DNA of 64,000 bases from a candidate division FCPU426 bacterium. Its GTDB lineage: Bacteria; Oederibacteriota; Muellerivitia; Muellerivitales; Muellerivitaceae. The stretch covers positions 186,142-250,141 of the forward strand of contig CAVTWJ010000001.1 of the NCBI GenBank assembly GCA_963738405.1. The letters are read 5' to 3'. Below, one piece after another: positions 3,100-59,473 of this stretch (positions are counted from its first letter, which is position 1; every line of letters begins with the position of its first letter). The position numbers and the translations under genes are program-made. The notes beneath the pieces were generated by a model, which saw only the letters and a program-made list of their open reading frames with translations, was not told where the DNA came from and made no database searches.

Positions 3100-3885
3100 T
3101 TGCCTAGCGGTTTATACATTGCGGCATCGGGAATGAATGCGACTTTGGCCCGTCAAGATGTCATTTCTAATAATTTGGCCAATGCGAACACGGTCGGCTT
3201 TAAACAAAATCGATCAGTTGATATCGCATTTCCAACATATCTTATTGCCCGGCTTCATGATCAACGTCTAAAGGTTATGGATGGAACGGCTGAATTGCGA
3301 CCCTCCATTGGCGTAATGGGTGGCGGAGTGATTCCTCAAACGGTTGCGACTGACTATTCACAAGGGGCCCATCTTGAAACTCAAAGCCCGCTGGATTTTG
3401 CGCTAAATGGTCCGGGTTTTTTTTCCGTGCTGGGGACGAATGGGAAAACATTTCTAACTCGAGATGGAAATTTTAGCTTGGATTCAAATGGTCGTCTTGT
3501 GACGAAAGATGGGTTGCCCGTGTTGGGCCACAATGGCGAAATATATATCGATGGAACCCAGGTAACAGCTGACCAAGAAGGTAATTTGACAGTCGACGGA
3601 AAAGCTTTGGATCAACTTCTGATTGTTAAAGTGAAAAACGAGAATCAACTAACTAAGGTGGGGCATTCGTTGTTTCAGGTTGAAGCCAAAAATCAAGTTG
3701 AGTTAATGCCTGAAGATGTTCAAGTTCAACAGGGCTTTTTAGAACAATCGAATGTGAATTCAATGTCGGAAATGGTTAATATGATTGATACCTACAGATC
3801 CTATGAACTGAATTCTCGAATCATTGCTTCATATGATCATTTAATGGGAGAGGCAGCTTCGCAAATTGGGTCGCTGAAAGTTTGA
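3100..3885 (+). CDS. flgF: flagellar basal-body rod protein FlgF
   Basis: SNNLANANTVGFK, TRDGNF, LEQSNVN motifs; precedes flgG. Confidence 0.9.
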   Translation: MPSGLYIAASGMNATLARQDVISNNLANANTVGFKQNRSVDIAFPTYLIARLHDQRLKVMDGTAELRPSIGVMGGGVIPQTVATDYSQGAHLETQSPLDFALNGPGFFSVLGTNGKTFLTRDGNFSLDSNGRLVTKDGLPVLGHNGEIYIDGTQVTADQEGNLTVDGKALDQLLIVKVKNENQLTKVGHSLFQVEAKNQVELMPEDVQVQQGFLEQSNVNSMSEMVNMIDTYRSYELNSRIIASYDHLMGEAASQIGSLKV

Positions 3886-3912
3886 TAATGGGTTAGTAGA
3901 CGTTTAATTTTT

Positions 3913-3992
3913 ACGGCCGGACTGCTTTTGCGGAGGCCGTTTTACCGCTGAACGATTGAGGCGGTATTGTTCAAGCTGATAGAGGGCTTGAA
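3913..3992 (+). promoter_or_regulatory. structured flgG leader (three hairpins; first shares motif with flgE leader)
   Basis: acggcc-GGA-ctgc-tttt-gcgg-A-ggccgt (3913-3940); taccgc..gcggta (3943-3966); ttcaagc..gcttgaa (3970-3992); SD AGGAGG follows. Confidence 0.6.
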
Positions 3993-4007
3993 ACCAAGGA
4001 GGCTTCC

Positions 4008-4808
4008 ATGATGCAGTCGCTTTACACGGCCGCGACAGGTATGGCCGCACAGCAGTTGAATATCGATACGATTTCGAACAACCTCGCTAACGTCAGCACA
4101 ACAGGCTTTAAAAAACAACGTGTTGATTTCCAAGATCTACTTTACATCAATCTGAAACCTTCCGGGACTCCAACTTCACCTGATACCAATACTCCGGTTG
4201 GACTGCAAATCGGCGAGGGAGTTAAGCCGGTTTCTACACAGCGCATATTCACTGAGGGCGCGATACAAAATACCAATAACCCATTGGATATTCTTATCGA
4301 AGGAAACGATAGTTTCTTTCAAGTGACCTTACCAAACGGTGAAACGGCCTATACCCGGGACGGATCGTTCACTCAAGATGCGAACGGAAATATCGTTACC
4401 GCCGATGGATATTTTTTAAATCCGCCAACACAGCTTCCTGCAGACACATCCTCTATTCAAATTACCACCAATGGCCAGATCATGGTGCAAACAGCAAGCA
4501 GTGCCGGCCAATCAGTTCAAGTTGGGCAGTTGGAACTTACTCGGTTTGTAAATCCCGCAGGTTTGATGGCCACGGGGAACAATTTATTCCTTGCAACGGC
4601 GGCTTCGGGAGATCCAATTCAGGGTACGCCTGGATCGACGGGATTTCCTAACGTTCAGCAGGGTTCTTTGGAAGAATCAAACGTTGATGTTGTCGATGAA
4701 ATGGTTAACCTCATCGTGGCTCAAAGGGCTTATGAACTTAATTCAAAAGCGGTCTCGACCTCCGATTCCATGCTCTATGATATTACAACGATGAAGCAGT
4801 TCCCCTGA
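4008..4808 (+). CDS. flgG: flagellar distal rod protein FlgG
   Basis: SNNLANVSTTGFKK, FQDLLY, GLQIGEGV, YTRDGSF, AQRAYELNSK; AGGAGG SD. Confidence 0.96.
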   Translation: MMQSLYTAATGMAAQQLNIDTISNNLANVSTTGFKKQRVDFQDLLYINLKPSGTPTSPDTNTPVGLQIGEGVKPVSTQRIFTEGAIQNTNNPLDILIEGNDSFFQVTLPNGETAYTRDGSFTQDANGNIVTADGYFLNPPTQLPADTSSIQITTNGQIMVQTASSAGQSVQVGQLELTRFVNPAGLMATGNNLFLATAASGDPIQGTPGSTGFPNVQQGSLEESNVDVVDEMVNLIVAQRAYELNSKAVSTSDSMLYDITTMKQFP

Positions 4809-7580: not shown

Positions 7581-8039
7581 TTGAATCCAAGTGTTGCAGC
7601 GGTGAATAACCTTCAACCCTTTATTCATGCCGTTTCTTCTGGCAATAATTCATTTTCGAGTGACTCCCAATTGGCGGCACAAACGCTCATGGGAAACACG
7701 CTTATGTCTCATGTGCCTTCCTTATCGAATCCAAATCAATTGAATTCCTTGCGGCCTGTTTTTGATCTGAATTCAAACCATGTTCATTCGGAAGCTCAGC
7801 TTCGAAAAGTTTCGAAAGATTTTGAAACGATCTTTTTACAGATGATGTTAAAGGAGATGCGTAATTCCGTTCAAAAGTCTGGCCTTATGGGTGATTCCCA
7901 AGCGACAAGCCTATTTGAGTCAATGCAAGACGAGCAAATTTCCCGTCAACTGGCTTCCGCGGGCGGAATTGGAATTGGAAACATGATTTATGGACAATTA
8001 GAGAAAGCCGTAGCTCCCCATCAAAAATCGTTTAAATGA
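7581..8039 (+). CDS. flgJ: single-domain rod-capping protein FlgJ (rod-binding, no muramidase domain)
   Basis: LRKVSKDFETIFLQMMLKEMR..GGIGIGNMIYGQL. Confidence 0.85.
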   Translation: MNPSVAAVNNLQPFIHAVSSGNNSFSSDSQLAAQTLMGNTLMSHVPSLSNPNQLNSLRPVFDLNSNHVHSEAQLRKVSKDFETIFLQMMLKEMRNSVQKSGLMGDSQATSLFESMQDEQISRQLASAGGIGIGNMIYGQLEKAVAPHQKSFK

Positions 8040-8473
8040 CTTGGGCCAACTGTTCCCGTTGTGGCAAAGCCTATACCCAAATGACGGTTGGAATGAATAT
8101 TTGCCAAATTTGCGCCAAAGAAGAAGACGACAACTTCACGTTGGTTTTTAGGTATCTTTCCACCCGCCCCGCTGCTACAGCCCAAGAAATTGCCCAAGAA
8201 ACCGGTGTTGATATTAAAGAGATTTATAAATATGTGCGGGAAAACCGGCTTCGACTTGTAAAAAATGATGCTGGTTTTTTTTGCGAAGGGTGTGGAGTGC
8301 CCATTTCGCAGGGAAAAAGGTGCGAAAAATGCTTTCGAAAACTGACGATTGAATTTCGAAATGATATAACCAAAACTATGGAAAATCGAAAAAATTCCTC
8401 TGAAAACCATAGTTTTTCCTCTCGTGATCCCCAAAAAGGCCCTAAATACCTTAAAAAATATAGAGGCGAATAA
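8036..8473 (+). CDS. YvyF-like flagellar operon protein (Zn-finger/HTH)
   Basis: NCSRCGK..ICQIC, HTH IAQETGV..YVRENRL, CEGCG..CEKC; lies before flgM as in Firmicutes. Confidence 0.8.
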   Translation: MTWANCSRCGKAYTQMTVGMNICQICAKEEDDNFTLVFRYLSTRPAATAQEIAQETGVDIKEIYKYVRENRLRLVKNDAGFFCEGCGVPISQGKRCEKCFRKLTIEFRNDITKTMENRKNSSENHSFSSRDPQKGPKYLKKYRGE

Positions 8474-8587: not shown

Positions 8588-8875
8588 ATGAAAATCGACG
8601 GATTTCAAAACATCCCAGCCATTCTTCAATCATTTCAAAAAACGACTCAGCCCTCTCAAAAATCTGAAATCGAAGGTTCCTTCAGTTCGGTTTCCTTGAG
8701 CTCGTTTGGGGAAGTGCTTCAGTCTTTGCAACGCCAATCAGCTCAAACTTCTCAGGCAAATGCCAAGAAAATTGAGCAATTAACTCAACAAATCGAATCA
8801 GGCAAGTATCAAGTCGATCTTAATAAACTTGCCACAAAGTTGGTTGATTCAAATATTATCGATTTCAAGGGTTAA
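8588..8875 (+). CDS. flgM: anti-sigma28 factor FlgM
   Basis: SVSLSS..KKIEQLTQQIESGKYQVDLNKLATKL. Confidence 0.88.
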   Translation: MKIDGFQNIPAILQSFQKTTQPSQKSEIEGSFSSVSLSSFGEVLQSLQRQSAQTSQANAKKIEQLTQQIESGKYQVDLNKLATKLVDSNIIDFKG

Positions 8876-11745: not shown

Positions 11746-14700
11746 GTGAAAAGTATAAGCGAACTTTTAGACAGCCTTTCGGCCAAACAAACCGATACCA
11801 CCCTAAACCCGACGGGGGTTGTTAACCCTTCTGGAAATGGGGCTGGATCGAATAACAATTCTTTTGGCCAGGTTATCGCCAAAATTTCAAACCAGCAACA
11901 AAACGCCAACAATAACAATCCAGTTCCGTTGACTGCGAATCATTCTGCGACAACGCCGGTTGTGTCGCCTTCTGCTGTAACTCCTGCAACCTCGACCGCC
12001 CAAACGCCTTCTCTCTTAACGGGTTCGACAGGGGCCAACCAAGCCGCCCAAGACACACTTCTTGTTATCGAAAAACTTCAAGGCGTCAAACCCCAAGATG
12101 TGGCTGCGATTGAAAAAGCTTTTTTTGCCATGGCTTCGGGTTTGGCCAATCTTCTTTCTCAGGCTCAACAGCTAACGGGTGAAAATTCTAGTCAGCTTCA
12201 AGCCCAATTGGTCGCCAATTCGGGGGGGCAAATTACTCCCGCCGAAGCATCCCAATTGGTTTCGGCGGTTCAAACTTTCGTGCAAAACCTTCCTCAGGGA
12301 CAAAACCCGCTTGATTTGAATAAACAGGACCAAAACCAGCTTGTGGGCCAAATGCTTCAACAAATGCTTCAGAATCAACAGGTTGCCTTTGCGCTTGCGC
12401 CGCAGGCCGCTACTCAGGGGGACAATCAATCTGTTAACACGACTTCATCCATATCCTCGATTGCGCAATCAAATGTTCTTTCTAATGTCACTTTGCGGTT
12501 TATGTTTGCTGATGGACAAATCAGCCAAACCTCTGCGACGGGGAATCAGAACAGCGGGGTTCAAGTTAATTTCCAAAGCGCCGGGGTGCAGGTTCTAACT
12601 CAAACTTTTAACACACAAAACTCTTTAGGGAGTATTGGTTCGGATTCCCTCCCGCAGGCATCGCTTCATTCAAACCAGCCTATTTTAAACAGAACGGTCA
12701 ATTTTCAACCGATTTCGCAGGATACGGTGAATTCAATATTGAATACCCTGTCCCAATTAGGAGCGCAACAAACTACCAATCTTCCAGTTACCATTGTTAA
12801 TCCCACTGTTTTAGGTCAAGGGCAACAAAACGCTGCCAATGGCCAGAATCTCCAGGCTCTCTTTAAGGTGTTGCTACAAGCCGGTGCTGGTCCGGTCATG
12901 CTTCAATCATCCATGGCACAGCAGGGAACCACCGCAAATAATCCTAATTCGCAGGCAACAACCCAAACTGGAAATCTTTTCACGCAATTTTCTGAAACCA
13001 TTACCGGGTCTATCCAATCCGTTTCGGTCCAGCCAATTGCGAGCGCTCAAAACACCGAAAATCCAACCATCAATCAGAATTCTTTCCCTTCGGCTCTGAT
13101 TTCGCAAAACGCCGGTAATACTCCTGTCAATTTAAAACCGATACCCCAAACAAGCACACAACCCACAGGTAACATCTCCAACAATTCCAACCTCTTACCT
13201 CAGAACGGCGCCCAAACCCCCGAAAACCTTGCGGTTAGTCCTAAGGCTGTTACTTCGACACAGGGAAACAATCAAACCCTCCAACCGCAAAATCAAACCG
13301 CGGCCAATGCTCCTAATGTGGGTAATGCCCAATCCTTCTGGTCGTCAGTTAATTTTCGACGGATTAACGATCTGGTGCTTCGATTTACCAATTTCATCGG
13401 CCAATCCAATACAGCGGTTGCGGTTCAATCTGCGGCGGGTCAGGGTCCCGCTCCCGTAGCCATTGCCAATACCCCTAGCGCTATTACCGCTCAGGTTGGC
13501 TCTTCCGTCGGCCCCCAGGCATCTCCCATCGCTATAGCCCAATTGCCAAATGGGGATCAGCAAGAAATCGTCAACAATGTTTTGACGCCGAATACCATTC
13601 AAATTCAGCCAATTCCGATACCCAATGCTCCTGTTACCACAACAACTCGGATTCAAACACAAGATCAAATCCATTTGTCCCAATCTCAACTGTCTCAACA
13701 AGACGCTTCAGTGTTGAACCAAAATCAAACCCCCATTTCTCCATTGGCCTCCAATCCCATTCAATCTGAATCAAACCAAAACTCGCAAAATTCAACTCAA
13801 ACGCAAGTGATAAGTTCTGTTTCTCCCTTAATTCCAACGAACACCACGGTTAACAGCGCAACACCCTTAAATAATAACCCGGCTGTGGTTACTTCTTTTG
13901 GAACCTCGAATTCCGTTGCGTCTTCCGCCAATATTAATCCCGCACCGCCTTCCGCTGTTTCGGGGCCTCCTGTGCTTCCTGGAACACAGGTTGTCACGCT
14001 TTCTCAGCCAGTCCCACAATCCAATTCGACCCAACCCTCGCAAGGTGGTTCGATAGCTCTGACATCAAATGCCCTAAATCAAGCACAGGATCCGGGTCTT
14101 TCGACACCGCCGGTATCCTTGGCACAAAATCTGTCCGGCTCCGTCGCAGCAGTTAACCTATTTGCCCAAGGAATTCCGCAAAATCAGTCGAATCACACTC
14201 AAACTCCAATAACCGCTAATCCGGTTCAGCCCTCCGGAACTATTTCAACGGCTACACCTCAGGCAGTGTCGGCAGTAACAAATGTGGGTGCTTCGGAGAA
14301 CCTGAAGCCTATCGGAGCACAAGAAAAGAGCCCTCTAACCGACCTTATGTCTTCCCAAAACCAGCCAGCTTTAGCCTCTAATGGCGTGGTTTATACCCTT
14401 GGGAAAAATGGGGAACTTCAATCGATAAATCCAGCGGGTAATCAGGTGCCGGTCAACGTTCAAGACCTGATTCGTCAGATTTCAAATCAAATTTCTGGAA
14501 AAACGGGTGATTTGAAAGCTACTTCTACCATCAGTTTTCAATTGTCGCCTGAAAACTTGGGAAGAATGACGATCCAGGTTTCCATGGCCGATCAATCGGT
14601 TTCGGCGAGAATTCTCGTGACAAACTCGGATGTCCGGGACGCCCTTCAACAGCATTTAGTGGATCTTAAAACTTCACTGAGCCAGTCAGGGTTGCAAATT

Positions 14701-14892
14701 GACCAGCTTCAGGTTCAAGTGCAGGGCGGCGGGGCCAGCCTTTTGGCCCAGTATTATCAGTACCAACAGGAAGGTTATGGGGCCAGCCTACCCTTTATGG
14801 GGGATACCAGTTCTACCGAGATCGCAGGCGAAAATGAGGCCAATTTGGCCCCGCTTTCGCTTAGGAAATCCCTTGTAAATCTGCTGGCTTAA
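11746..14892 (+). CDS. fliK: hook-length control protein FliK (1048 aa)
   Basis: Long Q/N/S/T/P-rich region, C-terminal T3S4 domain FQLSPENLGRMTIQV..VRDALQQHLVDLKTSLSQSGL; precedes flgD. Confidence 0.88.
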   Translation: MKSISELLDSLSAKQTDTTLNPTGVVNPSGNGAGSNNNSFGQVIAKISNQQQNANNNNPVPLTANHSATTPVVSPSAVTPATSTAQTPSLLTGSTGANQAAQDTLLVIEKLQGVKPQDVAAIEKAFFAMASGLANLLSQAQQLTGENSSQLQAQLVANSGGQITPAEASQLVSAVQTFVQNLPQGQNPLDLNKQDQNQLVGQMLQQMLQNQQVAFALAPQAATQGDNQSVNTTSSISSIAQSNVLSNVTLRFMFADGQISQTSATGNQNSGVQVNFQSAGVQVLTQTFNTQNSLGSIGSDSLPQASLHSNQPILNRTVNFQPISQDTVNSILNTLSQLGAQQTTNLPVTIVNPTVLGQGQQNAANGQNLQALFKVLLQAGAGPVMLQSSMAQQGTTANNPNSQATTQTGNLFTQFSETITGSIQSVSVQPIASAQNTENPTINQNSFPSALISQNAGNTPVNLKPIPQTSTQPTGNISNNSNLLPQNGAQTPENLAVSPKAVTSTQGNNQTLQPQNQTAANAPNVGNAQSFWSSVNFRRINDLVLRFTNFIGQSNTAVAVQSAAGQGPAPVAIANTPSAITAQVGSSVGPQASPIAIAQLPNGDQQEIVNNVLTPNTIQIQPIPIPNAPVTTTTRIQTQDQIHLSQSQLSQQDASVLNQNQTPISPLASNPIQSESNQNSQNSTQTQVISSVSPLIPTNTTVNSATPLNNNPAVVTSFGTSNSVASSANINPAPPSAVSGPPVLPGTQVVTLSQPVPQSNSTQPSQGGSIALTSNALNQAQDPGLSTPPVSLAQNLSGSVAAVNLFAQGIPQNQSNHTQTPITANPVQPSGTISTATPQAVSAVTNVGASENLKPIGAQEKSPLTDLMSSQNQPALASNGVVYTLGKNGELQSINPAGNQVPVNVQDLIRQISNQISGKTGDLKATSTISFQLSPENLGRMTIQVSMADQSVSARILVTNSDVRDALQQHLVDLKTSLSQSGLQIDQLQVQVQGGGASLLAQYYQYQQEGYGASLPFMGDTSSTEIAGENEANLAPLSLRKSLVNLLA

Positions 14893-14941: not shown

Positions 14942-14968
14942 AAATTGTAAGAAAGAGGGGTGATTTTC

Positions 14969-15385
14969 ATGATTTCAGGAGTTAGCGGAAACTCGAACAA
15001 CAACTCCATTTCGAGTGCGTTGTCAAGCGCTACCGGTAGTAATCAATTCGTGTCAGAAAACACTTTTTTAACTCTTCTGATTACGCAGTTGAAGAATCAG
15101 GATCCGATGAATCCCCAGGACAGCAGTCAGTTCGTGGCTCAGTTGGCGTCATTTTCTTCGTTGGAACAAATGACGGCAATCAATACCTCGATGCAGAATG
15201 TTTTGGATAATTCGTCGACCAGTTTGATCGGTCAACACGTGTCGTTGCTCGATGCGTCGGGAAGTTTGGTTCAAGGTACGGTGACCGGCATTGTTTATTA
15301 CGCCAATACGCCGGCGGTTCAGGTCAACGGGCAGAACTATCCCTTGTCGGATATTCAAAACGTTGGGAATATTGTAGGTCAGTAA
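14969..15385 (+). CDS. flgD: hook-capping protein FlgD
   Basis: FLTLLITQLKNQDPMNP..FVAQLASFSSLEQM. Confidence 0.93.
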   Translation: MISGVSGNSNNNSISSALSSATGSNQFVSENTFLTLLITQLKNQDPMNPQDSSQFVAQLASFSSLEQMTAINTSMQNVLDNSSTSLIGQHVSLLDASGSLVQGTVTGIVYYANTPAVQVNGQNYPLSDIQNVGNIVGQ

Positions 15386-15444: not shown

Positions 15445-15855
15445 GTGGTTCAGCAAGTTAACTTTAATGACTTGGTTTTTAAGCCGGTGGATGACGTCCA
15501 AAGCAAAGGCCAGTTGCAGCAGATTCAGCAACAGGCGAATAAAGCTGCGGAAGCCGTTCAGCCTTTTGACGCCGTGTTTCAATCGGCGGTTGATAAAACC
15601 CAATCGTTGAAGTTTTCGGCCCACGCCAAGGAAAGGCTGGCTTTGCGTAATATCAATCTTTCCCAGGATGACATGACCCGTATGAACGCTGCAGTGGATA
15701 AGGCGGCTTCCAAGGGGGCGCGTCAATCTCTTCTGGTGATGGAACACCAGGCTTTTATCGTGAGTGTGCCGAACCGCACCGTGATTACCGCGATGGATGG
15801 CGGAAGCATGAAAGAGAACGTCTTCACCAACATTGATAGCGCGGTGATTGTTTAG
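15445..15855 (+). CDS. TIGR02530-type flagellar operon protein
   Basis: LKFSAHAKERL..KG..SL..FIVSVPNRTVITAMD..ENVFTNIDSAVI, between flgD and flgE. Confidence 0.88.
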   Translation: MVQQVNFNDLVFKPVDDVQSKGQLQQIQQQANKAAEAVQPFDAVFQSAVDKTQSLKFSAHAKERLALRNINLSQDDMTRMNAAVDKAASKGARQSLLVMEHQAFIVSVPNRTVITAMDGGSMKENVFTNIDSAVIV

Positions 15856-15872
15856 TTTAAGTAGGGTAGCAA

Positions 15873-15924
15873 CGGGCTGGACCTCCTAGAGGAAGCCCGA
15901 AATTCGGCGGGCCTAATGCCTGCC
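15873..15924 (+). promoter_or_regulatory. structured flgE leader (two hairpins)
   Basis: cgggct-GGA-cctc-cta-gagg-A-agcccg (15873-15899) and ggcgggc-ctaat-gcctgcc (15906-15924) before SD AAGGAG. Confidence 0.6.
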
Positions 15925-15943
15925 AACTTTAAGGAGATCGATC

Positions 15944-17980
15944 ATGGGTTTAAGAGATATGTTCAGCGCCATTTCCGGGCTTCAAGCCAACAGCACTTGG
16001 CTGGATGTGATCGGAAATAACATCGCCAACACCAACACGGTGGCTTACAAATCGAGCCGGGTTGAGTTCGCGGATCAATTCAGCCAGACCCTTTACGCCG
16101 GCACCGGGGACAATACCGGCAGCGGATTGGGCGGCGTCAACCCCGAGCAGATCGGGTTGGGAACCAGGGTTGCTTCCATCCAGACCATCTGGACGGAAGG
16201 GGCTCTTCAGCAAACCGGTGTTTCCACCGACGTGGCCATCAACGGCAATGGCTTTTTGGTGACGAAAAACGACAACAGCACCTTTTACACCCGCGCCGGC
16301 AACCTGACCTTTGACAGCCAAGGCAACTTGGTTGACCAAAACGGGGGATTGATTCAGGGCTTTACGGCCACGGTTCAATATACGCAAACCGAAATCAATT
16401 CGACCAACGGAAACGCGGTAAATCCCACTCCGTTGGAAGTCACCTACGCCGATTTGAAGGTTCAGAACACGAACCTGTCGGCGGCTACGAACATTCAAAT
16501 CAATCCGAATTTCGTGGAGCCCGCCAAGGCGACTTCGCAGTTGAATTTTGTTGGTAACCTAGACTCTTTCCAACAGGCCAATGTGCTCAATATCGGCGCG
16601 GATACCGCTGCGGAACCGGCTACATTGCCAATTGGAATGCTAGGCGGTGGCGGTGTTGCGGCGGATTGGAATTTAAATAAGGTGGCACTCTCGGGATACG
16701 CGCCTCTTGGGGCGGCTGGAACCGGAACCCAAACCGTTCTGAACCAAGTGAACGATTACGCCACGGGTGTAGATCCGAACAATCCGGGACATACGACTCC
16801 CCTGATCGTTGGCGGGGCTGTATCTTTGGCTGCCATTCAAAATCCAGCAAATCCGCTGACAGAAAGTTTCGCATGGAATCAGCAGCCTCCAGTCACCCCG
16901 GCGTTGACTTCAACCCAGACGGTTTATGATTCGACGGGGGTACCCCATACCATTACAACCCAGTTTTACCAGGTAAATGATTTGGGAACCGCGAATCCTC
17001 CAATCAATCCCTCACCTGAGAATCAGGTGGCCTATGCCTGGTATTCTTTCGACACCACCGGTGGGGCAGCCGTCAGTACGGCGAATCTGCTTGGCGGGTC
17101 AGGCATTGTTGAAGGGCCGGACCCCGTTGCTGGAACTGCGGGTTATAACCGAGGGCAAGCGGGAACATCCTATTGGGGAGATTTGATCTATTTCAATACG
17201 GATGGATCCTTGGCTTCAATGGGTGGTGTTGAAGTAACTGCAGGCGCCAATGTGATTCAATCCGCAGCCCATGTTTATCTACCGGCAATCCAACCGCCAG
17301 CCGTCGCTCCTGGGCCGGTCGGTCAATTAACTCCGGTTTCACCGATTCCAACCCTTGGTGCTGAAATCATGGATATCACCATGGATTTTGGAACCGCAGG
17401 TTACACACAGGGCCCGACCGAAGCTCCGGTTGCGACTGCGGCTGCTAACACGGCTGGAGCTGCTCTTCCCGCCGGCTCGCCCGCACCTGGAACGATTCTT
17501 GATGCCAAACGCGACGGCTTTTTCAGCGATGCGGAAGGCACCTATCAGATCATCAATGGCGTCAATACATACGTGGCCAACAGCCATTCTACTACCAGCC
17601 AAAATGGTTACGCTGATGGGGTACTGCAGAACCTATCATTCGATCAAACCGGCACTATTCAAGGCCAGTTTAGCAACGGGCAAACCACGGCACTCGGCCA
17701 AGTTTTGATGGCCAGCGTCGAGAACGTAAATGGATTGTCCAAGGTGGGAAGCAATTATTATTCAGCTTCACCCAACGCCGGGGCTCAAACTTTAGGTTTG
17801 GCGGGTAAAAACGGTATGGGTACTATCCAAGGCGGTTACTTGGAAGCGTCCAACGTCGATTTGACCACTGAACTTTCCAACATGATCATCGCGCAGAGGG
17901 GATTTGATGTGAATTCCCGCGTGATCTCGGTTGAAAACGCAAACTTGCAGGTTCTGACTCAGTTGGGTCAAGGCGGCTGA
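15944..17980 (+). CDS. flgE: flagellar hook protein FlgE (678 aa, large inserts)
   Basis: DVIGNNIANTNTVAYK, YTRAGNL, VYDSTG, LEASNVDLTTELSNMIIAQRGF. Confidence 0.95.
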   Translation: MGLRDMFSAISGLQANSTWLDVIGNNIANTNTVAYKSSRVEFADQFSQTLYAGTGDNTGSGLGGVNPEQIGLGTRVASIQTIWTEGALQQTGVSTDVAINGNGFLVTKNDNSTFYTRAGNLTFDSQGNLVDQNGGLIQGFTATVQYTQTEINSTNGNAVNPTPLEVTYADLKVQNTNLSAATNIQINPNFVEPAKATSQLNFVGNLDSFQQANVLNIGADTAAEPATLPIGMLGGGGVAADWNLNKVALSGYAPLGAAGTGTQTVLNQVNDYATGVDPNNPGHTTPLIVGGAVSLAAIQNPANPLTESFAWNQQPPVTPALTSTQTVYDSTGVPHTITTQFYQVNDLGTANPPINPSPENQVAYAWYSFDTTGGAAVSTANLLGGSGIVEGPDPVAGTAGYNRGQAGTSYWGDLIYFNTDGSLASMGGVEVTAGANVIQSAAHVYLPAIQPPAVAPGPVGQLTPVSPIPTLGAEIMDITMDFGTAGYTQGPTEAPVATAAANTAGAALPAGSPAPGTILDAKRDGFFSDAEGTYQIINGVNTYVANSHSTTSQNGYADGVLQNLSFDQTGTIQGQFSNGQTTALGQVLMASVENVNGLSKVGSNYYSASPNAGAQTLGLAGKNGMGTIQGGYLEASNVDLTTELSNMIIAQRGFDVNSRVISVENANLQVLTQLGQGG

Positions 17981-18191: not shown

Positions 18192-19265
18192 TTGAATAAA
18201 ATTTTTCCTAAATACGAAATAGTCCTTGGATTGGTAGTTTTTATTATTTTAAGCCAGGGCTGTTCAAAAAAAAGTCCTACAGGACCTAATGCTAACGTTT
18301 GGTCCGAAACTACGGCACATGCGGCTTGGTCTCCACGTTATGGAATGGGCGGGGCGGTGTTTAACAATGAAATGTGGATCGTTGGTGGCGCGGAGGGCGT
18401 AGCTGGATCTGTTACGAATTATTATGGCGGTGTTTTCAATTCGAGTAATGGAAGTCAGTGGACTCAAAAAGTCGGCGATAGCAATACCGGAGGCTTTGGA
18501 GAAAGATATTCACCAGGTGTATTGTCATTCAATAATTTATTGTGGGTGATTGGTGGAAACCAGAATGGGACTCTAAAAAACGACGTTTGGTCCTCACTCG
18601 ATGGCGTTAATTGGTCCCTTGTCACGGCCAATGGGGGATTTACCCCCCGGGAAGATTTCATTTCGATAGTCTATAACGGCGCAATGTATGTCATCGGCGG
18701 TTGGGATGGTGGACCTGATTCAGATATATGGGTTTCTAACAATGCGGGAAACGTTTGGACAAAAGTGGTACCCGTGGTTAATACAGCGGCAATCCCAGGT
18801 TTTACCTGGGGTTTCCGGGGGCGTTGGGGTTCGGCCGCCACGGTTTTTAATGGATTGATTTGGATATTTGAGGGAGATAATGGAAATCCGAATATAGGCT
18901 CGCTTTCCGGAACCGCCGATGACGACGAATGGACATTTGATGGTGCCAATTTAACGCTGGTCAATGATGTCAGTTTCACTGGGAATGGTTCATCTCCCAT
19001 GGTTTACCACCAGTTAACCGCAAATAATGGATTGTTATGGCTAACCCCTGGAAGCGTGCCGGGGGGAAGTACTTACTATGGATATTACACTTCCTCCGAC
19101 GGCGTTAATTGGGCGGCGCAGAGTTGGTACTACCAACCTCGGTGTGGCCATACGGCACTTTCATTCAATAATCAGGATTGGATCATGGGGGGATACAACA
19201 ATCAGTGCTTGCAGGTCAATAATTGCGCCATAACTTACTACAATGATGTTTGGCATTCCCAATGA
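18192..19265 (+). CDS. lipoprotein with Kelch-like/beta-propeller repeats
   Basis: Lipobox LSQGC; repeats of FNN.(M/L)W(I/V)(V/I)GG..NDVWSS.DG.NW; TTG start. Confidence 0.65.
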   Translation: MNKIFPKYEIVLGLVVFIILSQGCSKKSPTGPNANVWSETTAHAAWSPRYGMGGAVFNNEMWIVGGAEGVAGSVTNYYGGVFNSSNGSQWTQKVGDSNTGGFGERYSPGVLSFNNLLWVIGGNQNGTLKNDVWSSLDGVNWSLVTANGGFTPREDFISIVYNGAMYVIGGWDGGPDSDIWVSNNAGNVWTKVVPVVNTAAIPGFTWGFRGRWGSAATVFNGLIWIFEGDNGNPNIGSLSGTADDDEWTFDGANLTLVNDVSFTGNGSSPMVYHQLTANNGLLWLTPGSVPGGSTYYGYYTSSDGVNWAAQSWYYQPRCGHTALSFNNQDWIMGGYNNQCLQVNNCAITYYNDVWHSQ

Positions 19266-19730: not shown

Positions 19731-21362
19731 ATGGTTTTTAAAGGGCGGGTTTTAAAAGGCTTCTTTTTTGGTTTATTCGCCCTTTTTATTCTTTTTCCAG
19801 CCATGCCGGGTTCTTACCATGCCTTTGCCTTATCAGATAGTCCTCAGCAATGGTTTGATCAATTTACCGCTGGCAATCCCGTCACAAACGCCGCTAGTAA
19901 CCCGGTTATCAATAATTGGACTCTTTCTTATACTGGTGGCCAGACCTACAACTTGTCCGTAACGCAGTTTAATAGTTCTGCGGGTGGACCGGTGACATCG
20001 GATGGTTTAATTTCCTATGCTCCTATAACCTCAACCGAACCGCCTTACGAATATGCTGAAATTAGCTCCCCTGCCTTTTCGGGCTGCAGTCCCTGCGCCG
20101 TGACCCTAACTTATAAAGATCCCAGTAATTTGGTCGCAAGTGGGCAGTACATAATGGTTGATGTTCTTACCCTCACTTCGCCAAAGCAATTTCAACTGGT
20201 TGTTACCGGTACCGACGGAACCACAATTGTTTCGTCTTCTAGTGATATTTTGAACAATTGTCTAAATCCTCCTGCGACCATTGCACAAAACACCATTAAT
20301 GACCAGTGGGCGACAGTTTTTATTTCAAATACCCTGTCGGTTCCGGTTTCAACCGTTAGTTTGATTATTCCCAATGGTTCGGCAGGAGATCTGGATCAGA
20401 ATGACGGTGATTTTGTTTATGTAGATGATCTTTTCGACAATGATAAATTATCTTGTCTGGTTCCACCCACCCCCACCTTCACCATGACCGCCACTCCCTC
20501 AAGCACTTTTACGGACACACCCACCGTTACGCCCACTCCTACTGTAACCCTTAGTCCCACTCCGACCTCTTCACCCACAGTCACTCCAACTCATACGCAG
20601 ACCTCTACTCCCTCAAGTACGCCGACAGTCACTAGCACCTTTACCCAAACGTCCACCCCAACCCCGACGGTATCGCCCACCCCAACCTCTTCTCCAACCG
20701 TCACTCCGACTATCACCGCGACTTCGACTTTGACTTCCACCTTAACGGCAACCGGCACCCCCACTCCCACCAATTCACCTCCACCACCCTTTACGGCAAC
20801 TAATACTGGAACATCCACACCATCTCCGACACCTGCCAATACCGGGACGCCTTCTTACACACCCACGCCTTCAAATACTCCGAGTCCGACATCATCTCCG
20901 ACCCCGTCGTGGACCTTAACCCCTTCTTTCTCGCCCACACCTTCTTTGACGCCGACGGTCACCACGACTCCAACCATTACCAACACGCCGCTTCCAACGG
21001 CGACCTATACCAATACGCCCTGTCCGGTGGATGTTTACCCCAACCCTATGGATTTCCAGCACAATCCGGCCTTCAACAATAATTGCCCCTCCTCAAGCCC
21101 CTGCATCAAATTTAGTTGCATACCTCCCACCTCCACCTTGAGTATTTACACCGTTTCTCTGGCCTTGGTGAGAACTTTCGGTCCGAACTACGATTCCAAT
21201 TATGTTTTCATTCCCAGCACGGGAACAGGATTGATCACCTGGGATGGCAATAATGGAGATGGGAACCCGGTAGCTTCTGGTTTTTATCTTTACAAGATTG
21301 AAGGTCCCAACGGCAGAACCTTTGGAAAATTCGCTATTTCTCGATCCTCGAACGGGCCCTAA
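19731..21362 (+). CDS. secreted protein with Thr-Pro linker and T9SS-CTD-like C-terminus
   Basis: Signal peptide; ~185 aa T/P/S repeat; [42 protein letters not shown]. Confidence 0.75.
20462..21020 (+). repeat. Thr-Pro/Ser low-complexity repeat (coding)
   Basis: Degenerate TPT/TVTP/SSPT repeats with varied codons. Confidence 0.85.
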
Positions 21363-21365
21363 ACC

Positions 21366-22334
21366 ATGTCCTCTTTCAAATTTCTATTGTTGGTTATTGT
21401 CTGCGTGTTTTTCTTTTCAAATAAACCAGCAGATGCTCAGTCAACTTCTAATGGCGGCCGGGACGCTTTCGACTTCATCAATCTTTCACCTATTTCCAGG
21501 GCGGTCGGCGTAGGGGAAGCCTATTCTGCACTGGGGGATGATGTGGGTTCGGTTTATTACAATCCGGCGGGGTTGGCGAGTGTTTTGACAAACGAAATGA
21601 ACATAACTTATCTTTCCCTTTACCAACAAATGAATTACGAGTTCATCGCCTTTGCGACCCCGATTCAACCCGCCTTTCCATCTCTAGGCGGTGTGGTTGC
21701 TATTAGTGCGGGACTTCTTCAGCCTGGAAGCATGAATCGAACAAACGATCAGGGTGTTACCACCGGGACTTTTTCCAGTGGAGATGAGGTATTCACGCTG
21801 GCCTATGCGAAGGATATCAGCCCTTCTTTTCATGTGGGAGCGTCGTTAAAGTTATTGAACCAACAAATTGATACGGTTCAAACTTCTCTCTTTGCCGTGG
21901 ACGCAGGCTTGGTCATGATTCCTCCCTTTCAGGGAATGCGGGCCGGGGTGGTATTTAAAAACATTGGAGCTCAGGATTCTGGGTTCAATCTGCCATTTAC
22001 GCTCTCGGGTGGGCTTTCATACCGGCAATACGAACTTTTTGCCGATCAAGACGATGGAGCGATAACGGGTGAAGTGTCCTTTCCGATTGAACCGATCGAG
22101 AATCCCATTGGGGCCGCAATAGGCATCGAATATAACTATAAATGGGTTGGAAACAGGGCTACGGTGCGGGCTGGGTATAAATATCAGAATAATGGATTGG
22201 GCGGGGAAGGGCTAACCTTGGGTGCGGGTTATGGTTTGGACCTAGCTGGTGCGGTACTGTTTTTAGATTATGCCTATGCCCCCGCGGATTTATTTGGAGA
22301 TACTAACCGTATATCCCTGACGACTAAATTTTGA
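21366..22334 (+). CDS. PorV/PorQ-family outer-membrane barrel
   Basis: FINLSPISRAVGVGEAY..DVGSVYYNPAGL; ends NRISLTTKF. Confidence 0.8.
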   Translation: MSSFKFLLLVIVCVFFFSNKPADAQSTSNGGRDAFDFINLSPISRAVGVGEAYSALGDDVGSVYYNPAGLASVLTNEMNITYLSLYQQMNYEFIAFATPIQPAFPSLGGVVAISAGLLQPGSMNRTNDQGVTTGTFSSGDEVFTLAYAKDISPSFHVGASLKLLNQQIDTVQTSLFAVDAGLVMIPPFQGMRAGVVFKNIGAQDSGFNLPFTLSGGLSYRQYELFADQDDGAITGEVSFPIEPIENPIGAAIGIEYNYKWVGNRATVRAGYKYQNNGLGGEGLTLGAGYGLDLAGAVLFLDYAYAPADLFGDTNRISLTTKF

Positions 22335-22345
22335 GGCGCTTTTAT

Positions 22346-23341
22346 ATGATTAAGAATTTTTCTCCTTTGCCGAGGGTTGCTGCACTTTTGATTTGTTCGA
22401 TCTCGGGATTCCTTTTTTATTCCGCCCTAACCCCGGTGTTGGCTCAATCTGTGGGAACTACGACGGCCGATATTCTCAAAATCAATTCAGGCGCAAGGCC
22501 TGCTGCCATGGCAGGGGTTTACACCGCTCTAGGGGATGATGCCTATGCGGTTCAATATAACCCGGCGGGAATCGCCAAAATTCAGGCCAGTCAGGCCATC
22601 TTTACCCACTTGGATAGCTTGGCCGATATTTCTTACGAATATTTCATTTTCGCAACAGCCGTCGGGACCGACGGGGCCTTAGCCGCTGCCTTTACTTACC
22701 GTTACATGCCTCCCATTGACAACCAAAACGGGAATCCTCCGGCTAATTCCAATGACCTGTTAGGAGCTTTAAGTTATGGCCGAAAATTAGGAGATAACAT
22801 TCGCGCGGGGTTGACCTTGAAATACCTTCAATCCACTTTGGCGCAATATTCCGCGGGCGCTGTCATGGGAGATATCGGGCTCCAACTTGACCGGTTGCCC
22901 TTTGGACTCAAAGCGGGGTTGGCAGTGCAAAATATCGGCCCTGGAATGACCTTCAATCCCGCCTCGTCCCCCGACCCGCTTCCAATGTTCATTCGATTTG
23001 GCCTTGGGATCCATCAGGTTTTTGAGGGCCAAAGGGATTTTAACGCCGCTCTTGAGGTGTTCAAACCTTCCGACCAGGATATCAAATTAGAAATAGGCGG
23101 GGAGGGGTGGCTTTTCCCAAATCTATTTGTGGTTAGGGCGGGGTACCGAATGGAAAGTTTGAGCTCAACCACGGGCAACGTTTTCAATAACTATACTTTG
23201 GGATGTTCCTTGGTTCAGCAATGGGATGAGAATGATTTCTCGCTCGACATCGCCTATGACCCGGCTAATTTCGGATCAACTTCCCAGGATACTTTCTTTT
23301 TTGGATTGAACGTAAAGTTCAACCAATTGCGACTCTTGTAG
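22346..23341 (+). CDS. PorV/PorQ-family outer-membrane barrel
   Basis: LKINSGARPAAMAGVY..DAYAVQYNPAGI; barrel strands; start uncertain (22331 or 22346). Confidence 0.8.
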   Translation: MIKNFSPLPRVAALLICSISGFLFYSALTPVLAQSVGTTTADILKINSGARPAAMAGVYTALGDDAYAVQYNPAGIAKIQASQAIFTHLDSLADISYEYFIFATAVGTDGALAAAFTYRYMPPIDNQNGNPPANSNDLLGALSYGRKLGDNIRAGLTLKYLQSTLAQYSAGAVMGDIGLQLDRLPFGLKAGLAVQNIGPGMTFNPASSPDPLPMFIRFGLGIHQVFEGQRDFNAALEVFKPSDQDIKLEIGGEGWLFPNLFVVRAGYRMESLSSTTGNVFNNYTLGCSLVQQWDENDFSLDIAYDPANFGSTSQDTFFFGLNVKFNQLRLL

Positions 23342-54256: not shown

Positions 54257-54328
54257 CGGGGCGTAGCGCAGCGGTAGCGCACTTGGTTTGGGACCAAGGG
54301 GCCGTGAGTTCGAATCTCACCGCCCCGA
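54257..54328 (+). tRNA. tRNA-Pro(TGG)
   Basis: CGGGGCG acceptor stem, anticodon arm cttgg-tttggga-ccaag, GTTCGAATC; CCA not encoded. Confidence 0.95.
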
Positions 54329-54392
54329 CTAAGGGCATTGGGTAACAACATCCCGTTTTTCTGCCGCGATTATTTCCTTTAACCAAATCAGC

Positions 54393-54469
<77 letters not shown>

Positions 54470-54475
54470 TATTTC

Positions 54476-54505
54476 CCAAATAACTTTTTTCAAATAACTT
54501 TTCTT
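54476..54505. repeat. tandem CAAATAACTTTT repeats (candidate integrase arm sites)
   Basis: Copies at 54477 and 54491; caaataacttttctt recurs exactly at 63881-63895. Confidence 0.6.
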
Positions 54506-54625
54506 GGGTTTTCCTACCCCTCTTTAATCTATACGGATTAGTGGGAATTTCAAGAGAACGTTGAAAAGGTTAGAAATAACCTTATCTTTTGTTTGGTGGT
54601 ATGCTCGATTTGTTAGGGGGTTCCA

Positions 54626-54793
54626 ATGGAGAACGACATTACCAAACCTTCCGTAAACCCAGGGGAGCCGGATCAATGGGATGATTGGGAGGATTCGTTG
54701 TTAAGGGGGATCAAGGCCGGGGTTGAGGAGAGACGGAAAGCCGGAAATATCCCCCCAATCGATCCAGAGAAGCAAACGGACGCTGGTAAATAG
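54626..54793 (+). CDS. 55-aa hypothetical cargo protein (below ORF-track cutoff)
   Basis: MENDITKPSVNPGEPDQWDDWEDSLLRGIKAGVEERRKAG...; AGGGGG SD and TG-TATGCT-like extended -10 upstream. Confidence 0.45.
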   Translation: MENDITKPSVNPGEPDQWDDWEDSLLRGIKAGVEERRKAGNIPPIDPEKQTDAGK

Positions 54794-54898
54794 TTTTAAA
54801 CATCAAGAGGATGGGCTTCCTGCCCGTTGCCAACCTGCCAAGCTCGGCAAGGTGGAAAAAAGATGAGGGCTTAAAAAGCCAACAAAGGAGCAACCGTC

Positions 54899-55162
54899 AT
54901 GGGCTGGTTCAAACAGAGACATTTCGAGAATGGACAACTAGTTACCCACCATTCGTGCTTTGCAACTTGCATGGGTTATTTGGCTTACAAATCTTATTAT
55001 TTTAAAGCCTTCAGAAAACGTCCCCCTCATTGGTTTTTGGTAAGCGCTTCCCTCGTTGACCAAATAGACACAATGCAAAAAGCCATTGAAGCCGGGAAAC
55101 CCATTCCTGATTCAAAGACCCCAACGATAATTATTTTTCCAGCCAAATTTTTCATCAAATAA
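54899..55162 (+). CDS. 87-aa hypothetical cargo protein
   Basis: AAGGAG SD with good spacing; no family recognised. Confidence 0.5.
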   Translation: MGWFKQRHFENGQLVTHHSCFATCMGYLAYKSYYFKAFRKRPPHWFLVSASLVDQIDTMQKAIEAGKPIPDSKTPTIIIFPAKFFIK

Positions 55163-55410
55163 AAGCCGTCCAGCCGGGCCAAGCCATGCCAACCCAGCCC
55201 AGCCAGACGGGGCGCTAATGCGCCGATAAAGGAATGTCCAGGCTGGGGGCAGCCTGGAACAAGTTAATGGCCCCCGGGGGGAGCTGTAACCACCCAGGGG
55301 CATACCGGGGGGAAGAAAACCCCCAGGTTAAAAGGCCGAGATTCTGAGTCTCGGCTGTCTACCCAAAAGCAACCGGGCGAAGGGCCGGGAGAGAGCTAAA
55401 GGGTCTACCA
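55161..55410 (-). ncRNA. candidate structured RNA / 3' end of element late transcript
   Basis: At least six consecutive GC-rich hairpins; last is a 20-bp stem with 8 G-U pairs on the minus strand followed by TTTT. Confidence 0.5.
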
Positions 55411-55414
55411 ACGG

Positions 55415-55747
55415 TCAATAATGGCCAACAGCCATTTCAAACGGATGGCCGATGGCCAACGCGGCCAGGGTGGGACAATCCTTCATGGCAGTTGCGAAGG
55501 CTTTCTCAACGGTAATTTCTGGAAACCGTTTCCGTAAGTCAGTCGAGTAGGCCGTAAGAAATTCGTTAGCCGTCTCCATACTGGGCCTTTCCGATTTCGC
55601 AACCGAATGGACGTTCTTTAAATTTCGGTCATATTTCTGAATCGATTCCATGCTTATTTTTTCCATGCTTTCCGCTCCTTTTTTTATTTTGTTTAGTTGG
55701 TTCAAATACAGCCTTGTTATTTCGAGGTCCGTTAGTTCATTAGGCAT
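55415..55747 (-). CDS. hypothetical helical protein (possibly scaffold-like)
   Basis: Start MPNELT overlaps the upstream stop; DLRKRFPEITVEKAFATAM helix motif. Confidence 0.55.
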   Translation of the reverse strand: MPNELTDLEITRLYLNQLNKIKKGAESMEKISMESIQKYDRNLKNVHSVAKSERPSMETANEFLTAYSTDLRKRFPEITVEKAFATAMKDCPTLAALAIGHPFEMAVGHY

Positions 55748-56390
55748 AGGCAATTTCCTCCTTGAGGAAGTCATCCAAATTTTTTTGTCTCGCGGCCACA
55801 ATGTTTTGTTTCTCAAGGATCAATTCTGGGGGTGTATGACGCGGATCCTTTTGGGTATTAGCCAAGTCAATCTCGGCGGATTTCAAATTGTTTTTTAGCG
55901 AATTTAAAATCTCGGTTCTTCGGGTTTCATCCCTCTTTTTTTGGTCCTCTTCGGCCCGTTGAATTTCACTCCTGGTCAGTTCAGAGATGGCCAGGGTTTT
56001 GTTCGCGGCTTCGCGCAAATCCTGGGCGGTGTCTTGAACCTTTTTTAACTCCTCGGATAACTTGAAAGCCTTCGCCTCGAATTCTTGGGCCTTGGCCAAA
56101 AGTTCCCCAGCTCGTTTTCGGTCGGCTTCCCGGCGGGGTTGGTCCGCGATTGCGTCGGCTAAAAATTCTTTGCGCTCTTTTAGTCGTTCCTCCAGAAGGC
56201 CTACCTCTACTTGCCGTTGGGCTGCTTCCAATGCTTGCGAGGCTCGGATGGAATCATCCCCGCGCAGGGCCCGGGCTTTGGTGTCGGCCAGCTTTGTTTT
56301 TTTAAAACCAAGTTGGTCTTCGCATTTTTTTAGATTTTCTTCAGCGCGAAGGATGCAAGAATCTTTTTGGATTAAAGTATCGACAGGCAT
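55740..56390 (-). CDS. coiled-coil hypothetical protein
   Basis: E/K/R/A heptad-rich 216 aa; GGGGG SD before ATG 56390. Confidence 0.7.
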   Translation of the reverse strand: MPVDTLIQKDSCILRAEENLKKCEDQLGFKKTKLADTKARALRGDDSIRASQALEAAQRQVEVGLLEERLKERKEFLADAIADQPRREADRKRAGELLAKAQEFEAKAFKLSEELKKVQDTAQDLREAANKTLAISELTRSEIQRAEEDQKKRDETRRTEILNSLKNNLKSAEIDLANTQKDPRHTPPELILEKQNIVAARQKNLDDFLKEEIAYA

Positions 56391-56529
56391 GATTTCCCCC
56401 AAATATGGATTTAGGACTGGCAGAGCATGGCCAGAACGGTTTTAAGTTGTGGTGTTGATTGGTGAAACGAGTTCGGAGGGGTTTACTTCTTTACAGCTTT
56501 TCTGTACAAAAGCATTTTAACATGATTCC

Positions 56530-56784
56530 TTATTTCTTGTAAGTCTCAACCTGGGCTAAAGCTGATACCAACCGCGAAGGGCTCCATTTCCGGCCCCTGA
56601 ATGTTTTAATCCCCTTGGCTTGCAAACGCTCGCAGCATTCCCGCAGGGTCATGGGAACCCGCCTTTTGCGCCAAGGAATTACCAGCCCCGCTATTTGTTG
56701 GTGAAATCGAAGTAAGGGCCCCTGACCTACCAAGGCCAAAAGCCTGATCGTTCGATTTCCTCTCTTTGGTTCTAGTAACCGCAT
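56530..56784 (-). CDS. stand-alone Recombinase-domain-like DNA-binding protein
   Basis: TLRECCERLQAKGIKTFRGRKWSPSRL resembles the serine-recombinase DNA-binding domain; AGGAG SD. Confidence 0.6.
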   Translation of the reverse strand: MRLLEPKRGNRTIRLLALVGQGPLLRFHQQIAGLVIPWRKRRVPMTLRECCERLQAKGIKTFRGRKWSPSRLVSALAQVETYKK

Positions 56785-56798
56785 TTTTTAAGCTCCTT

Positions 56799-59366: not shown

Positions 59367-59473
59367 GGTGGTAACCGGTAACCGGAGTAACCGCAGATTG
59401 GAGGTAATACAGACTCCCCACTTCCTAAGACGCTATCCGGTTTTTGTGGTTACTCCGGTTACCGGTTACCATC
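59367..59473. repeat. iteron inverted repeat, probable replication origin
   Basis: 24-bp perfect inverted repeat tggtaaccggtaaccggagtaacc (59369-59392 / 59448-59471) directly downstream of the primase stop. Confidence 0.7.

Follow-up and report, generated by a model that had tools for sequence, protein, structure and literature searches.

What does the small gene between the hook-cap gene and the hook gene of so many flagellar operons do, and is it connected with the RNA that follows it? This question is raised by a 64,000-nucleotide (nt) stretch of DNA, hereafter the window, from a candidate division FCPU426 bacterium (GenBank assembly GCA_963738405.1, contig CAVTWJ010000001.1, positions 186,142 to 250,141 of the forward strand). 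In the window the gene order is flgD, a gene of the TIGR02530 family, and flgE, which we take to be the arrangement given in the family description, where the gene lies between flgD and flgE. The original prediction, made from the letters of this DNA, had cast the TIGR02530 protein as the reader of a hairpin in the leader of flgE. Most of the underlying description proved correct, and the interpretation finds partial support. Our analysis indicates that this leader is one copy of a two-hairpin element located upstream of flgE, a structured RNA of wide distribution that seems to have gone undescribed. Three observations appear to be new, namely, the pairing of the gene with this RNA, the lack of the motif at loci devoid of the gene, and a second copy of the motif in front of flgG. 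The features of the window are listed in Table 1.

To define the element, we used 80 TIGR02530 loci kept from the species representatives of GTDB, which had been scanned with a pattern taken from a 14-row alignment. The spacers between the gene and flgE were lined up from 77 loci, and two hairpins were present nearly everywhere. Hairpin 1 of the family is composed of an outer stem of 4 to 8 base pairs (bp), a GGA internal loop, an inner stem of the form CC...GG and a bulged A (or G). The internal loop reads GGA in 67/80 copies and GGC or GGU in 13/80. Hairpin 2, which starts 1 to 5 nt after hairpin 1 in 71/75 loci, has a stem of 5 to 7 bp and a 10-nt loop with the sequence GANNGAYNGA. In the flgE leader of the window, the GGA internal loop lies opposite a single A and the gap between the gene and the first hairpin is 17 nt, the stop codon ending at 15855 and the hairpin starting at 15873; both points had been described correctly. 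The end coordinate previously given for the gene, 15924, proved to be that of the second leader hairpin, as the gene itself stops at 15855. The variant hairpin 2 with a CUAAU loop is common to the flgE leader of the window and to a locus labelled Spirochaetia (L019:4411-4483), while the flgG leader of the window is canonical. Another locus, L044, harbors two tandem copies of the motif (L044:4388-4456 and L044:4521-4575) in a 251-nt spacer before flgE.

RNAalifold applied to a MAFFT alignment detected hairpin 2 only. The structure was therefore written by hand from the two copies of the window and then tested by covariation, using a covariance model, R1, whose seed consisted of 48 loci and the two window copies with the hand-written structure. 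In the alignment fitted to the model, 89% of the cells were occupied by standard pairs, compared with 38 to 54% for slid partners. Changes on both sides were found in 16 of the 17 pairs, and no shuffle reached the observed values. Single-sequence folding was unremarkable, with z-scores of -0.68 and -1.87 for the two window copies; the evidence for the structure is comparative. With filters off, R1 identified exactly two copies in the window, at 15871-15940 before flgE (35 bits) and at 3911-3982 before flgG (47.1 bits). Searches with the 4227 models of Rfam 15 yielded no match to the leader, either in the window (at the gathering score) or in eight motif-bearing loci (at E ≤ 1); the literature searched contained nothing relevant on a flgE leader element.

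The position of the element relative to the TIGR02530 gene varies. Hairpin 1 has already begun by the last nucleotide of the stop codon in 21/75 loci; in 19 it begins within 10 nt of that codon, and in 14 the gap exceeds 30 nt. At the former 21 loci (e.g., L003, L007, L008, L046 and L070) the stop codon of the TIGR02530 gene is located inside the 5′ arm of hairpin 1, so that a terminating ribosome would need to melt the hairpin. We also considered that the motif might be a promoter or a terminator and rejected both possibilities, because sigma-70-like and terminator-like sites around the gene are no commoner than in shuffles, and because the variable lengths of stems and loops and the covariation do not fit a promoter with fixed spacing. 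A sigma-28 pattern had no match in the window.

When the 80 loci were searched with R1 at E ≤ 0.01, the motif was found in 77 of them, always on the plus strand and directly after the gene; 29 of these 77 loci are outside the R1 seed. With the filters off, loci L019 and L065 yielded weaker matches at the same place (E of 7.4e-3 and 8.5e-4, respectively). As locus L078 has no downstream sequence, the testable loci number 79, and the motif directly follows the TIGR02530 gene in all 79 of them. The same succession was found in GenBank record MT835480.1 (E of 6.6e-4). This record is filed as "Bacteriophage sp." (L088 / L096 / L097); it may come from a bacterial genome, or from a phage that carries flagellar DNA of its host.

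A collection of plasmids, in which no relative of TIGR02530 was detected, provided loci without the gene. It contains 250 records with FlgE- or FlgG-like genes, from which 12 loci were taken as the gene-less set: Bacillaceae (Bacillus velezensis, Rossellomorea and Pontibacillus), Clostridia (Acetoanaerobium), Actinomycetota (Arthrobacter, Pseudarthrobacter and Curtobacterium), Thermomicrobiota (Thermomicrobium), Spirochaetota (Leptospira) and Pseudomonadota (E. coli, Rhizobium and Roseomonas). In 10 of the 12, flgD is directly followed by the hook gene (9 by annotation, and Acetoanaerobium by its listing of open reading frames), the hook gene being annotated flgG in two Bacillaceae records; in Rhizobium and Roseomonas other genes precede flgE. 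R1 run with filters off found the motif in 0/12 of these loci, the best matches, with E values of 0.11 and 0.69, being in unrelated places. At E ≤ 0.01, the motif is thus present at 78/80 loci with the gene and at 0/12 without it (Fisher p = 2.5e-13). A motif common in genomes lacking TIGR02530 had been named among the results that would disprove the proposal; our counts, 79/79 with the gene and 0/12 without it, come out in favor of the proposal, although this is a weak test. The copy in front of flgG is the one observation that separates an interaction from common descent. It is located 11.5 kb from the TIGR02530 gene, a distance in favor of a trans-acting reader.

We then examined the protein. 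The window protein matches the TIGR02530 profile at 113.5 bits (cutoff, 83.2), with its residues 41 to 136 aligned to positions 2 to 96 of the 96 of the profile, and PF12611 (Flagellar_put) at 55.8 bits (gathering score, 21.1) over a C-terminal motif of 24 residues (112 to 135). It has the same length as its relatives at 96% identity. The family comprises 6647 clusters at 90% identity within the length range searched, and 1978 at 50%. In the pattern scan of the GTDB species representatives, a relative is encoded at no fewer than 575 of the 596 matches listed. The 80 loci come from Bacillota, Eremiobacterota/Vulcanimicrobiota, Cloacimonadota, Fibrobacterota, Spirochaetia, Geobacter, Bdellovibrionales, Ignavibacteria/Chlorobiota-type bins, Armatimonadota, Actinomycetota and others. 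Across many phyla the proteins are 40 to 65% identical and the gene occupies one fixed position, with a FlgD-like match at most 700 nt upstream in 71/80 loci and a FlgE-type N terminus downstream in 77/80. Long or fused forms are nearly absent: there are five singletons, three of them with a FlgD domain, and the fused forms are probably read-through gene calls. The statement that TIGR02530 has no assigned function agrees with the literature searched, in which we found no functional study of TIGR02530 or PF12611, mentions in the text being at the level of annotation.

For the C-terminal domain, an AlphaFold2 model built with a 148-row alignment reached a pLDDT of 94.6 for residues 52 to 136. 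Its elements are, in order, a short strand, two helices (residues 59 to 67 and 74 to 89), three strands (94 to 99, 102 to 107 and 112 to 118), a short helix and a last strand (132 to 135). Seven residues, S58, H60, A61, R64, T115, I130 and D131, are invariant across the 148 sequences, and R68, K90 and G91 are conserved in at least 90% of them; conservation is strongest in the S-x-H...R...R set on the first, or pre-alpha, helix and in the segment of beta4. The string FSAHAKERLALRNI, from which a ribonuclease (RNase) had been proposed, is present at residues 57 to 70. The TVIT sequence taken at the time for the terminal strand is found instead at residues 112 to 115, in strand beta3, and is followed by 21 residues.

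A 2026 preprint describes the colicin-like group of the BECR fold as a pre-alpha helix, an alpha helix and strands beta1 to beta4, with pre-alpha parallel to beta4 and with conserved His and Lys/Arg residues on the pre-alpha helix and on beta4, and it places DUF4258 (overlapping Ntox49) in this group. TIGR02530 likewise has its conserved His, accompanied by Lys/Arg, on the pre-alpha helix, and beta4 also bears conserved residues. In the order of its secondary-structure elements, the model agrees with this description. The profile of DUF4258 (PF14076) has weak matches in 79 of 150 relatives (best E of 5e-4), the next unrelated family matching 14 of 150. In one relative the match extends from the S-x-H-A motif over residues 45 to 116, or positions 1 to 68 of the 71 of the profile, at 16.1 bits for a gathering score of 25. 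Among the Foldseek matches of the domain model to the Protein Data Bank (PDB), 14 of the 39 shown are toxins of the RelE/ParE/HigB/YoeB type, and one more is a sequence-specific ribonuclease. The best match in BFVD has an E of 3.7e-3, and this database also returned a phage "site-specific RNA endonuclease" (E of 0.031) and a phage "DUF4258 domain-containing protein" (E of 0.052, probability of 0.95). A search of the ESM Atlas retrieved only the clusters of the family itself. From these results taken together, we read the domain as a probable remote member of the colicin-like BECR fold. Of the RelE/BrnT-like fold proposed earlier, the RelE/BECR side is thus supported by signals below threshold (DUF4258, AlphaFold topology and Foldseek), while BrnT gave no signal, PF04365 not being among the 25 families most frequently matched by the 150 relatives at E ≤ 10.

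The protein is outside DUF4258 as Pfam defines it. It resembles DUF4258/Ntox49 in the opening S/T-x-H-A-x-x-R, the length of the domain and the predicted colicin-like BECR topology. Unlike that family, it scores under the Pfam cutoff and has no antitoxin or immunity gene as a neighbor, and in addition its N-terminal region bears an export-like motif and its flagellar setting is fixed. DUF4258 is itself listed by Gerdes 2025 as a toxin family of the RelE/ParE superfamily whose activity is not known. No adjacent antitoxin gene, the mark of type II systems of the RelE/ParE kind, was found, as the neighbors are flgD and flgE both in the window and at the loci. Phage G gp136 (L090:2346-2693), a TIGR02530 homologue according to a preprint on phage G, was considered and rejected, with no tblastn match and an hhalign probability of 0.3%; it also has no Pfam match of note and thus provides no bridge from TIGR02530 to DUF4258. 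Its start, T-x-H...R...R, resembles the TIGR02530 motif.

The N-terminal region carries a second conserved signature. An F-x-x-hydrophobic-L/F motif has its Phe in 149 of 150 relatives, followed at position +4 by Leu (120), Phe (22) or Tyr, Met, Val or Ile (7), and at position +3 mostly by Val, Ile or Leu. This pattern resembles the short formula of the motif recognized by the flagellar export gate. The Phe is at a median of 35 residues from the N terminus, and at residue 30 or beyond in 138/149 relatives; an Ala, Val, Ile or Leu occurs within residues 2 to 8 in 95% of them. The FlgE proteins of the same loci harbor F-[QKS]-[DE]-hydrophobic-[LF], mostly at residues 41 to 43, in 61/77 cases, and in the window FlgD has FLTLL at residues 36 to 40, FlgG has FQDLL and FlgE has FADQF. 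Bryant et al. 2022 (PMC8983047) found that all the rod and hook subunits of Salmonella have a gate motif at least 30 residues from the N terminus, and that a small-hydrophobic signal near the N terminus is required as well. The TIGR02530 proteins display these features of early (rod/hook-type) export substrates as a resemblance of pattern, and thus look like early substrates; whether they pass through the flagellar apparatus is, judged from sequence, a question on which we are evenly divided. The proposal that the N terminus could be a flagellar export signal is supported by this invariant motif, which occurs at the same position as in FlgE, FlgG and FlgD. The PFDAVF segment is indeed present at residues 40 to 45 and the region is Q-rich as described, with 12 Gln among the first 53 residues, but it is modelled as two helices with moderate confidence (block pLDDT of 66 to 81), which does not bear out the disorder proposed for it.

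These observations can be joined in the following mechanism. The TIGR02530 protein would no longer be a toxin, and its toxin-derived domain would recognize and may cut the two-hairpin leader of flgE and flgG, which would set the amounts of hook and distal-rod protein made from the polycistronic flagellar mRNA. The N-terminal ~50 residues would act as a rod/hook-type (early) flagellar type III export signal. The cytoplasmic level of the protein, and hence its action on the leader, would then depend on the export gate being open and in early mode. Regulation might proceed in one of two directions: the mRNAs would be repressed or destabilized as long as the gate is closed, or once more when the apparatus has switched away from early substrates; or a processing cut near its own stop codon would leave a protective 5′ hairpin on the flgE mRNA. 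We consider a direct interaction between the TIGR02530 protein and the RNA to be poised between true and false. That a former toxin-type RNase fold now reads or cuts the leader is a tentative proposal, which we place slightly below that balance, that export couples regulation to assembly is unlikely, and the whole secretion-coupled circuit, as an RNA-level and early-stage counterpart of the FlgM checkpoint in which the gate turns hook and rod synthesis on or off, is slightly less likely still.

Parts of this mechanism have precedents. In a passage on flagellar operons, Zhang, de Souza, Anantharaman, Iyer and Aravind 2012 (PMC3482391) reported an RNase of the colicin E5/D clade of BECR that occurs consistently in the flagellar operons of Firmicutes, and suggested either that the flagellar system delivers it or that it processes RNA and so regulates flagellar genes. 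Their example protein is very probably a member of TIGR02530, and that passage anticipates both the fold assignment and the two functional ideas. It consists of one paragraph, restricted to Firmicutes and giving in itself no RNA target, export motif or test, whereas the family analyzed here extends over many phyla and is accompanied by a defined RNA. RegB of phage T4 is a small non-toxin RNase of the RelE/YoeB-like type, which inactivates certain mRNAs, a defined set, by cutting site-specifically at GGAG in translation initiation regions. The BFVD matches to the TIGR02530 fold include a RegB-like phage protein. RegB differs in being a phage protein that needs ribosomal protein S1 and in targeting unstructured Shine-Dalgarno sites instead of an element with two hairpins, and the likeness is one of fold. 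The checkpoint of FlgM and sigma-28 similarly involves a small regulator encoded in a flagellar operon, and the cytoplasmic level of TIGR02530 would likewise be set by export. FlgM, however, is exported late and controls transcription by binding a sigma factor, whereas TIGR02530 has an early-type motif and would act on RNA; no FlgM domain was found in the TIGR02530 protein. In the FliW-CsrA-flagellin system, post-transcriptional control through a GGA-containing leader RNA is coupled to the state of assembly. A flagellar structural gene is similarly controlled there through a leader with GGA, but the target is flagellin rather than a hook or rod gene, the reader is CsrA and the architecture of the motif differs.

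Several results weigh against a TIGR02530 protein that acts on the leader RNA. As the gene and the motif are contiguous, a single deletion removes both, which makes the co-occurrence test weak; shared descent with single deletions predicts the same table without any interaction, and the gene-less set is small, its 12 loci all coming from the plasmid collection. Only one copy of the motif away from the gene was found, that in front of flgG in the window. No further copy was found in the ±4-kb flanks of the 80 loci, nor away from the gene in the 75 kb of MT835480.1. The covariation counts are biased upward by the fitting of the alignment to the model. The distance from the end of hairpin 2 to the flgE start codon, 3 to 177 nt with a median of 33, indicates that the element does not generally cover the ribosome-binding site and that simple occlusion is not a general mechanism; a role of the leader in processing, stability or recruitment fits better. 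As for the fold, no similarity of the domain to RNase folds reaches the threshold of significance. The window protein has no match to DUF4258 even at E ≤ 10, sequence searches of solved structures, both with the window protein and with a 150-sequence profile against PDB, returned nothing meaningful, and the Foldseek searches of PDB and BFVD gave no match at E ≤ 1e-3. The best PDB match has an E of 0.13 and TM scores go up to 0.52, the full-length model giving the same picture. The domain is not uniformly basic, with isoelectric points from 4.7 to 11.6 across the family (median, 8.5) and of 9.4 in the window. Finally, an exported protein might act outside the cytoplasm, away from the mRNA.

Alternatively, the TIGR02530 protein would be an exported accessory of hook assembly that works through protein contacts, for instance with FlgD or FlgE at the growing hook. 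Its RNase-like fold would be a relic, and the RNA, inserted with the gene as one module, would act in cis independently of the protein, for example as a processing site or a 5′ stabilizer that raises flgE expression over that of the preceding genes. The N-terminal motif and its position match those of early export substrates, the gene is between the hook-cap and hook genes in at least 71/80 loci, and contiguity alone accounts for the co-occurrence. A hairpin that hugs the stop codon, as it does in 21/75 loci and within 10 nt in 19 more, also suits a compact mRNA element. Such an accessory is nevertheless a somewhat unlikely explanation. The highest conservation is in the pre-alpha S-x-H...R...R set and beta4, which in colicin-like RNases form the active-site region, and this is unexpected for a relic, the invariant loop sequences of the RNA imply a specific trans-acting reader, and the motif also occurs before flgG, far from the gene.

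The reader might also be CsrA or another general RNA-binding factor that recognizes the GGA motifs, with TIGR02530 unrelated to it. CsrA targets have two or more GGA sites within tens of nucleotides. In the flgE leader, one GGA forms part of the internal loop of hairpin 1, another is found where the inner stem ends on its 3′ side and a third is in the Shine-Dalgarno sequence, a spacing that fits this pattern. We regard this as quite improbable, because the GGA is in an internal loop and not in a hairpin loop and is replaced by GGC or GGU in the copies counted above, the invariant loop of hairpin 2 usually has no GGA, and neither csrA nor fliW is in the window. In addition, the motif is missing from all 12 gene-less loci, among them three Bacillaceae and one Clostridia, loci that were compared for the motif and not for csrA. 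It is very improbable indeed that the protein works as an active RNase toxin that the flagellar export machinery delivers out of the cell, or as one half of a pair akin to type III toxin-antitoxin systems in which the RNA neutralizes the RNase. The predicted BECR toxin-type fold, the N terminus resembling an export signal and the structured RNA adjoining the gene would accord with such a toxin, and its delivery was proposed in the paragraph of Zhang et al. 2012. In contrast, there is no adjacent immunity or antitoxin gene, the neighbors being flgD and flgE; 40 to 65% identity across phyla at a fixed position is unlike polymorphic toxins; the RNA is a single copy after the gene and not an array of repeats before it; and the motif also occurs before flgG.

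Table 1. Coordinates of the gene, the leader RNAs and neighboring features in the window
Feature	Position	Strand	Remarks
flgF	3100-3885		
Spacer between flgF and flgG	3886-4007		122 nt
Second copy of the motif, in the flgF/flgG spacer	3913-3966	+	hairpin 1 at 3913-3940
Hairpin 2 of the second copy	3943-3966	+	canonical, loop GAACGAUUGA
flgG	4008-4808	+	distal rod; downstream of the second motif copy
flgA, flgH, flgI, then gene of a rod-binding (FlgJ-like) protein			between flgG and flgM
Open reading frame of 145 amino acids (aa)	8036-8473		only a weak zinc-ribbon match; between the rod-binding (FlgJ-like) gene and flgM
flgM	8588-8875		followed by flgN and flgK
FliK gene	11746-14892		1048 aa; between flgK and flgD
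flgD	14960-15385	+	hook cap; directly upstream of the TIGR02530 gene
TIGR02530 / PF12611 gene	15445-15855	+	136 aa, GTG start, TAG stop
Codons of F41-D-A-V-F45	15565-15579	+	candidate flagellar export-gate recognition motif
C-terminal BECR-like domain, residues 55-136	15607-15852	+	predicted from AlphaFold model, weak DUF4258 and Foldseek matches; short strand, pre-alpha helix (S58, H60, R64, R68), alpha helix, beta1-beta3, short helix, beta4
Spacer between TIGR02530 gene and flgE	15856-15943		88 nt
flgE leader hairpin 1	15873-15899	+	6-bp outer stem, GGA internal loop, 4-bp inner stem starting CC/GG, single-A bulge
flgE leader hairpin 2	15906-15924	+	variant; CUAAU loop replaces GANNGAYNGA of the family
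Shine-Dalgarno-like AAGGAG	15931-15936	+	7 nt before the flgE ATG
flgE	15944-17980	+	hook protein, 678 aa
Kelch-repeat protein gene	18192-19265		inside the flagellar cluster, between flgE and flbD
flbD	from 19290		

Some other features of the window are worth reporting. FliK is extremely rich in Gln, Asn, Ser, Thr and Pro, and the part of it that is recognized is the C-terminal Flg_hook domain alone (residues 924 to 996). FlhB, like csrA and fliW, was not found in the 64 kb. Downstream of the cluster in Table 1, a Thr/Pro-rich protein with a C-terminal FlgD_ig-like domain (19731-21362) and a PorV-like protein (22331-23338) suggest that this flagellated diderm possesses a type IX secretion system. 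Further along, a SAM-I/IV riboswitch was detected at 54795-54895 (57.8 bits for a gathering score of 41.1). The segment from 54257 to 63883 contains two tRNA genes followed by small unassigned open reading frames, a D5-type primase gene (59475-61682, minus strand) and a phage-type integrase gene (62450-63883, minus strand), and has the appearance of a mobile element inserted at a tRNA site.

TIGR02530 is among the most widespread genes of flagellar operons without a function, and its pairing with a covarying RNA gives the speculation of 2012 a defined and directly testable form. If the TIGR02530 protein does read the leader, the two would represent a cis-regulatory RNA of a new class together with its dedicated reader, in the flagellar operons of more than 10 phyla, and a toxin RNase fold would have been recruited for gene regulation. 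In flagellar assembly, the rod/hook stage would then be subject to a checkpoint that acts after transcription. Should the leader be read by something else, the motif would still seem to be an undescribed structured RNA that is widespread upstream of flgE.

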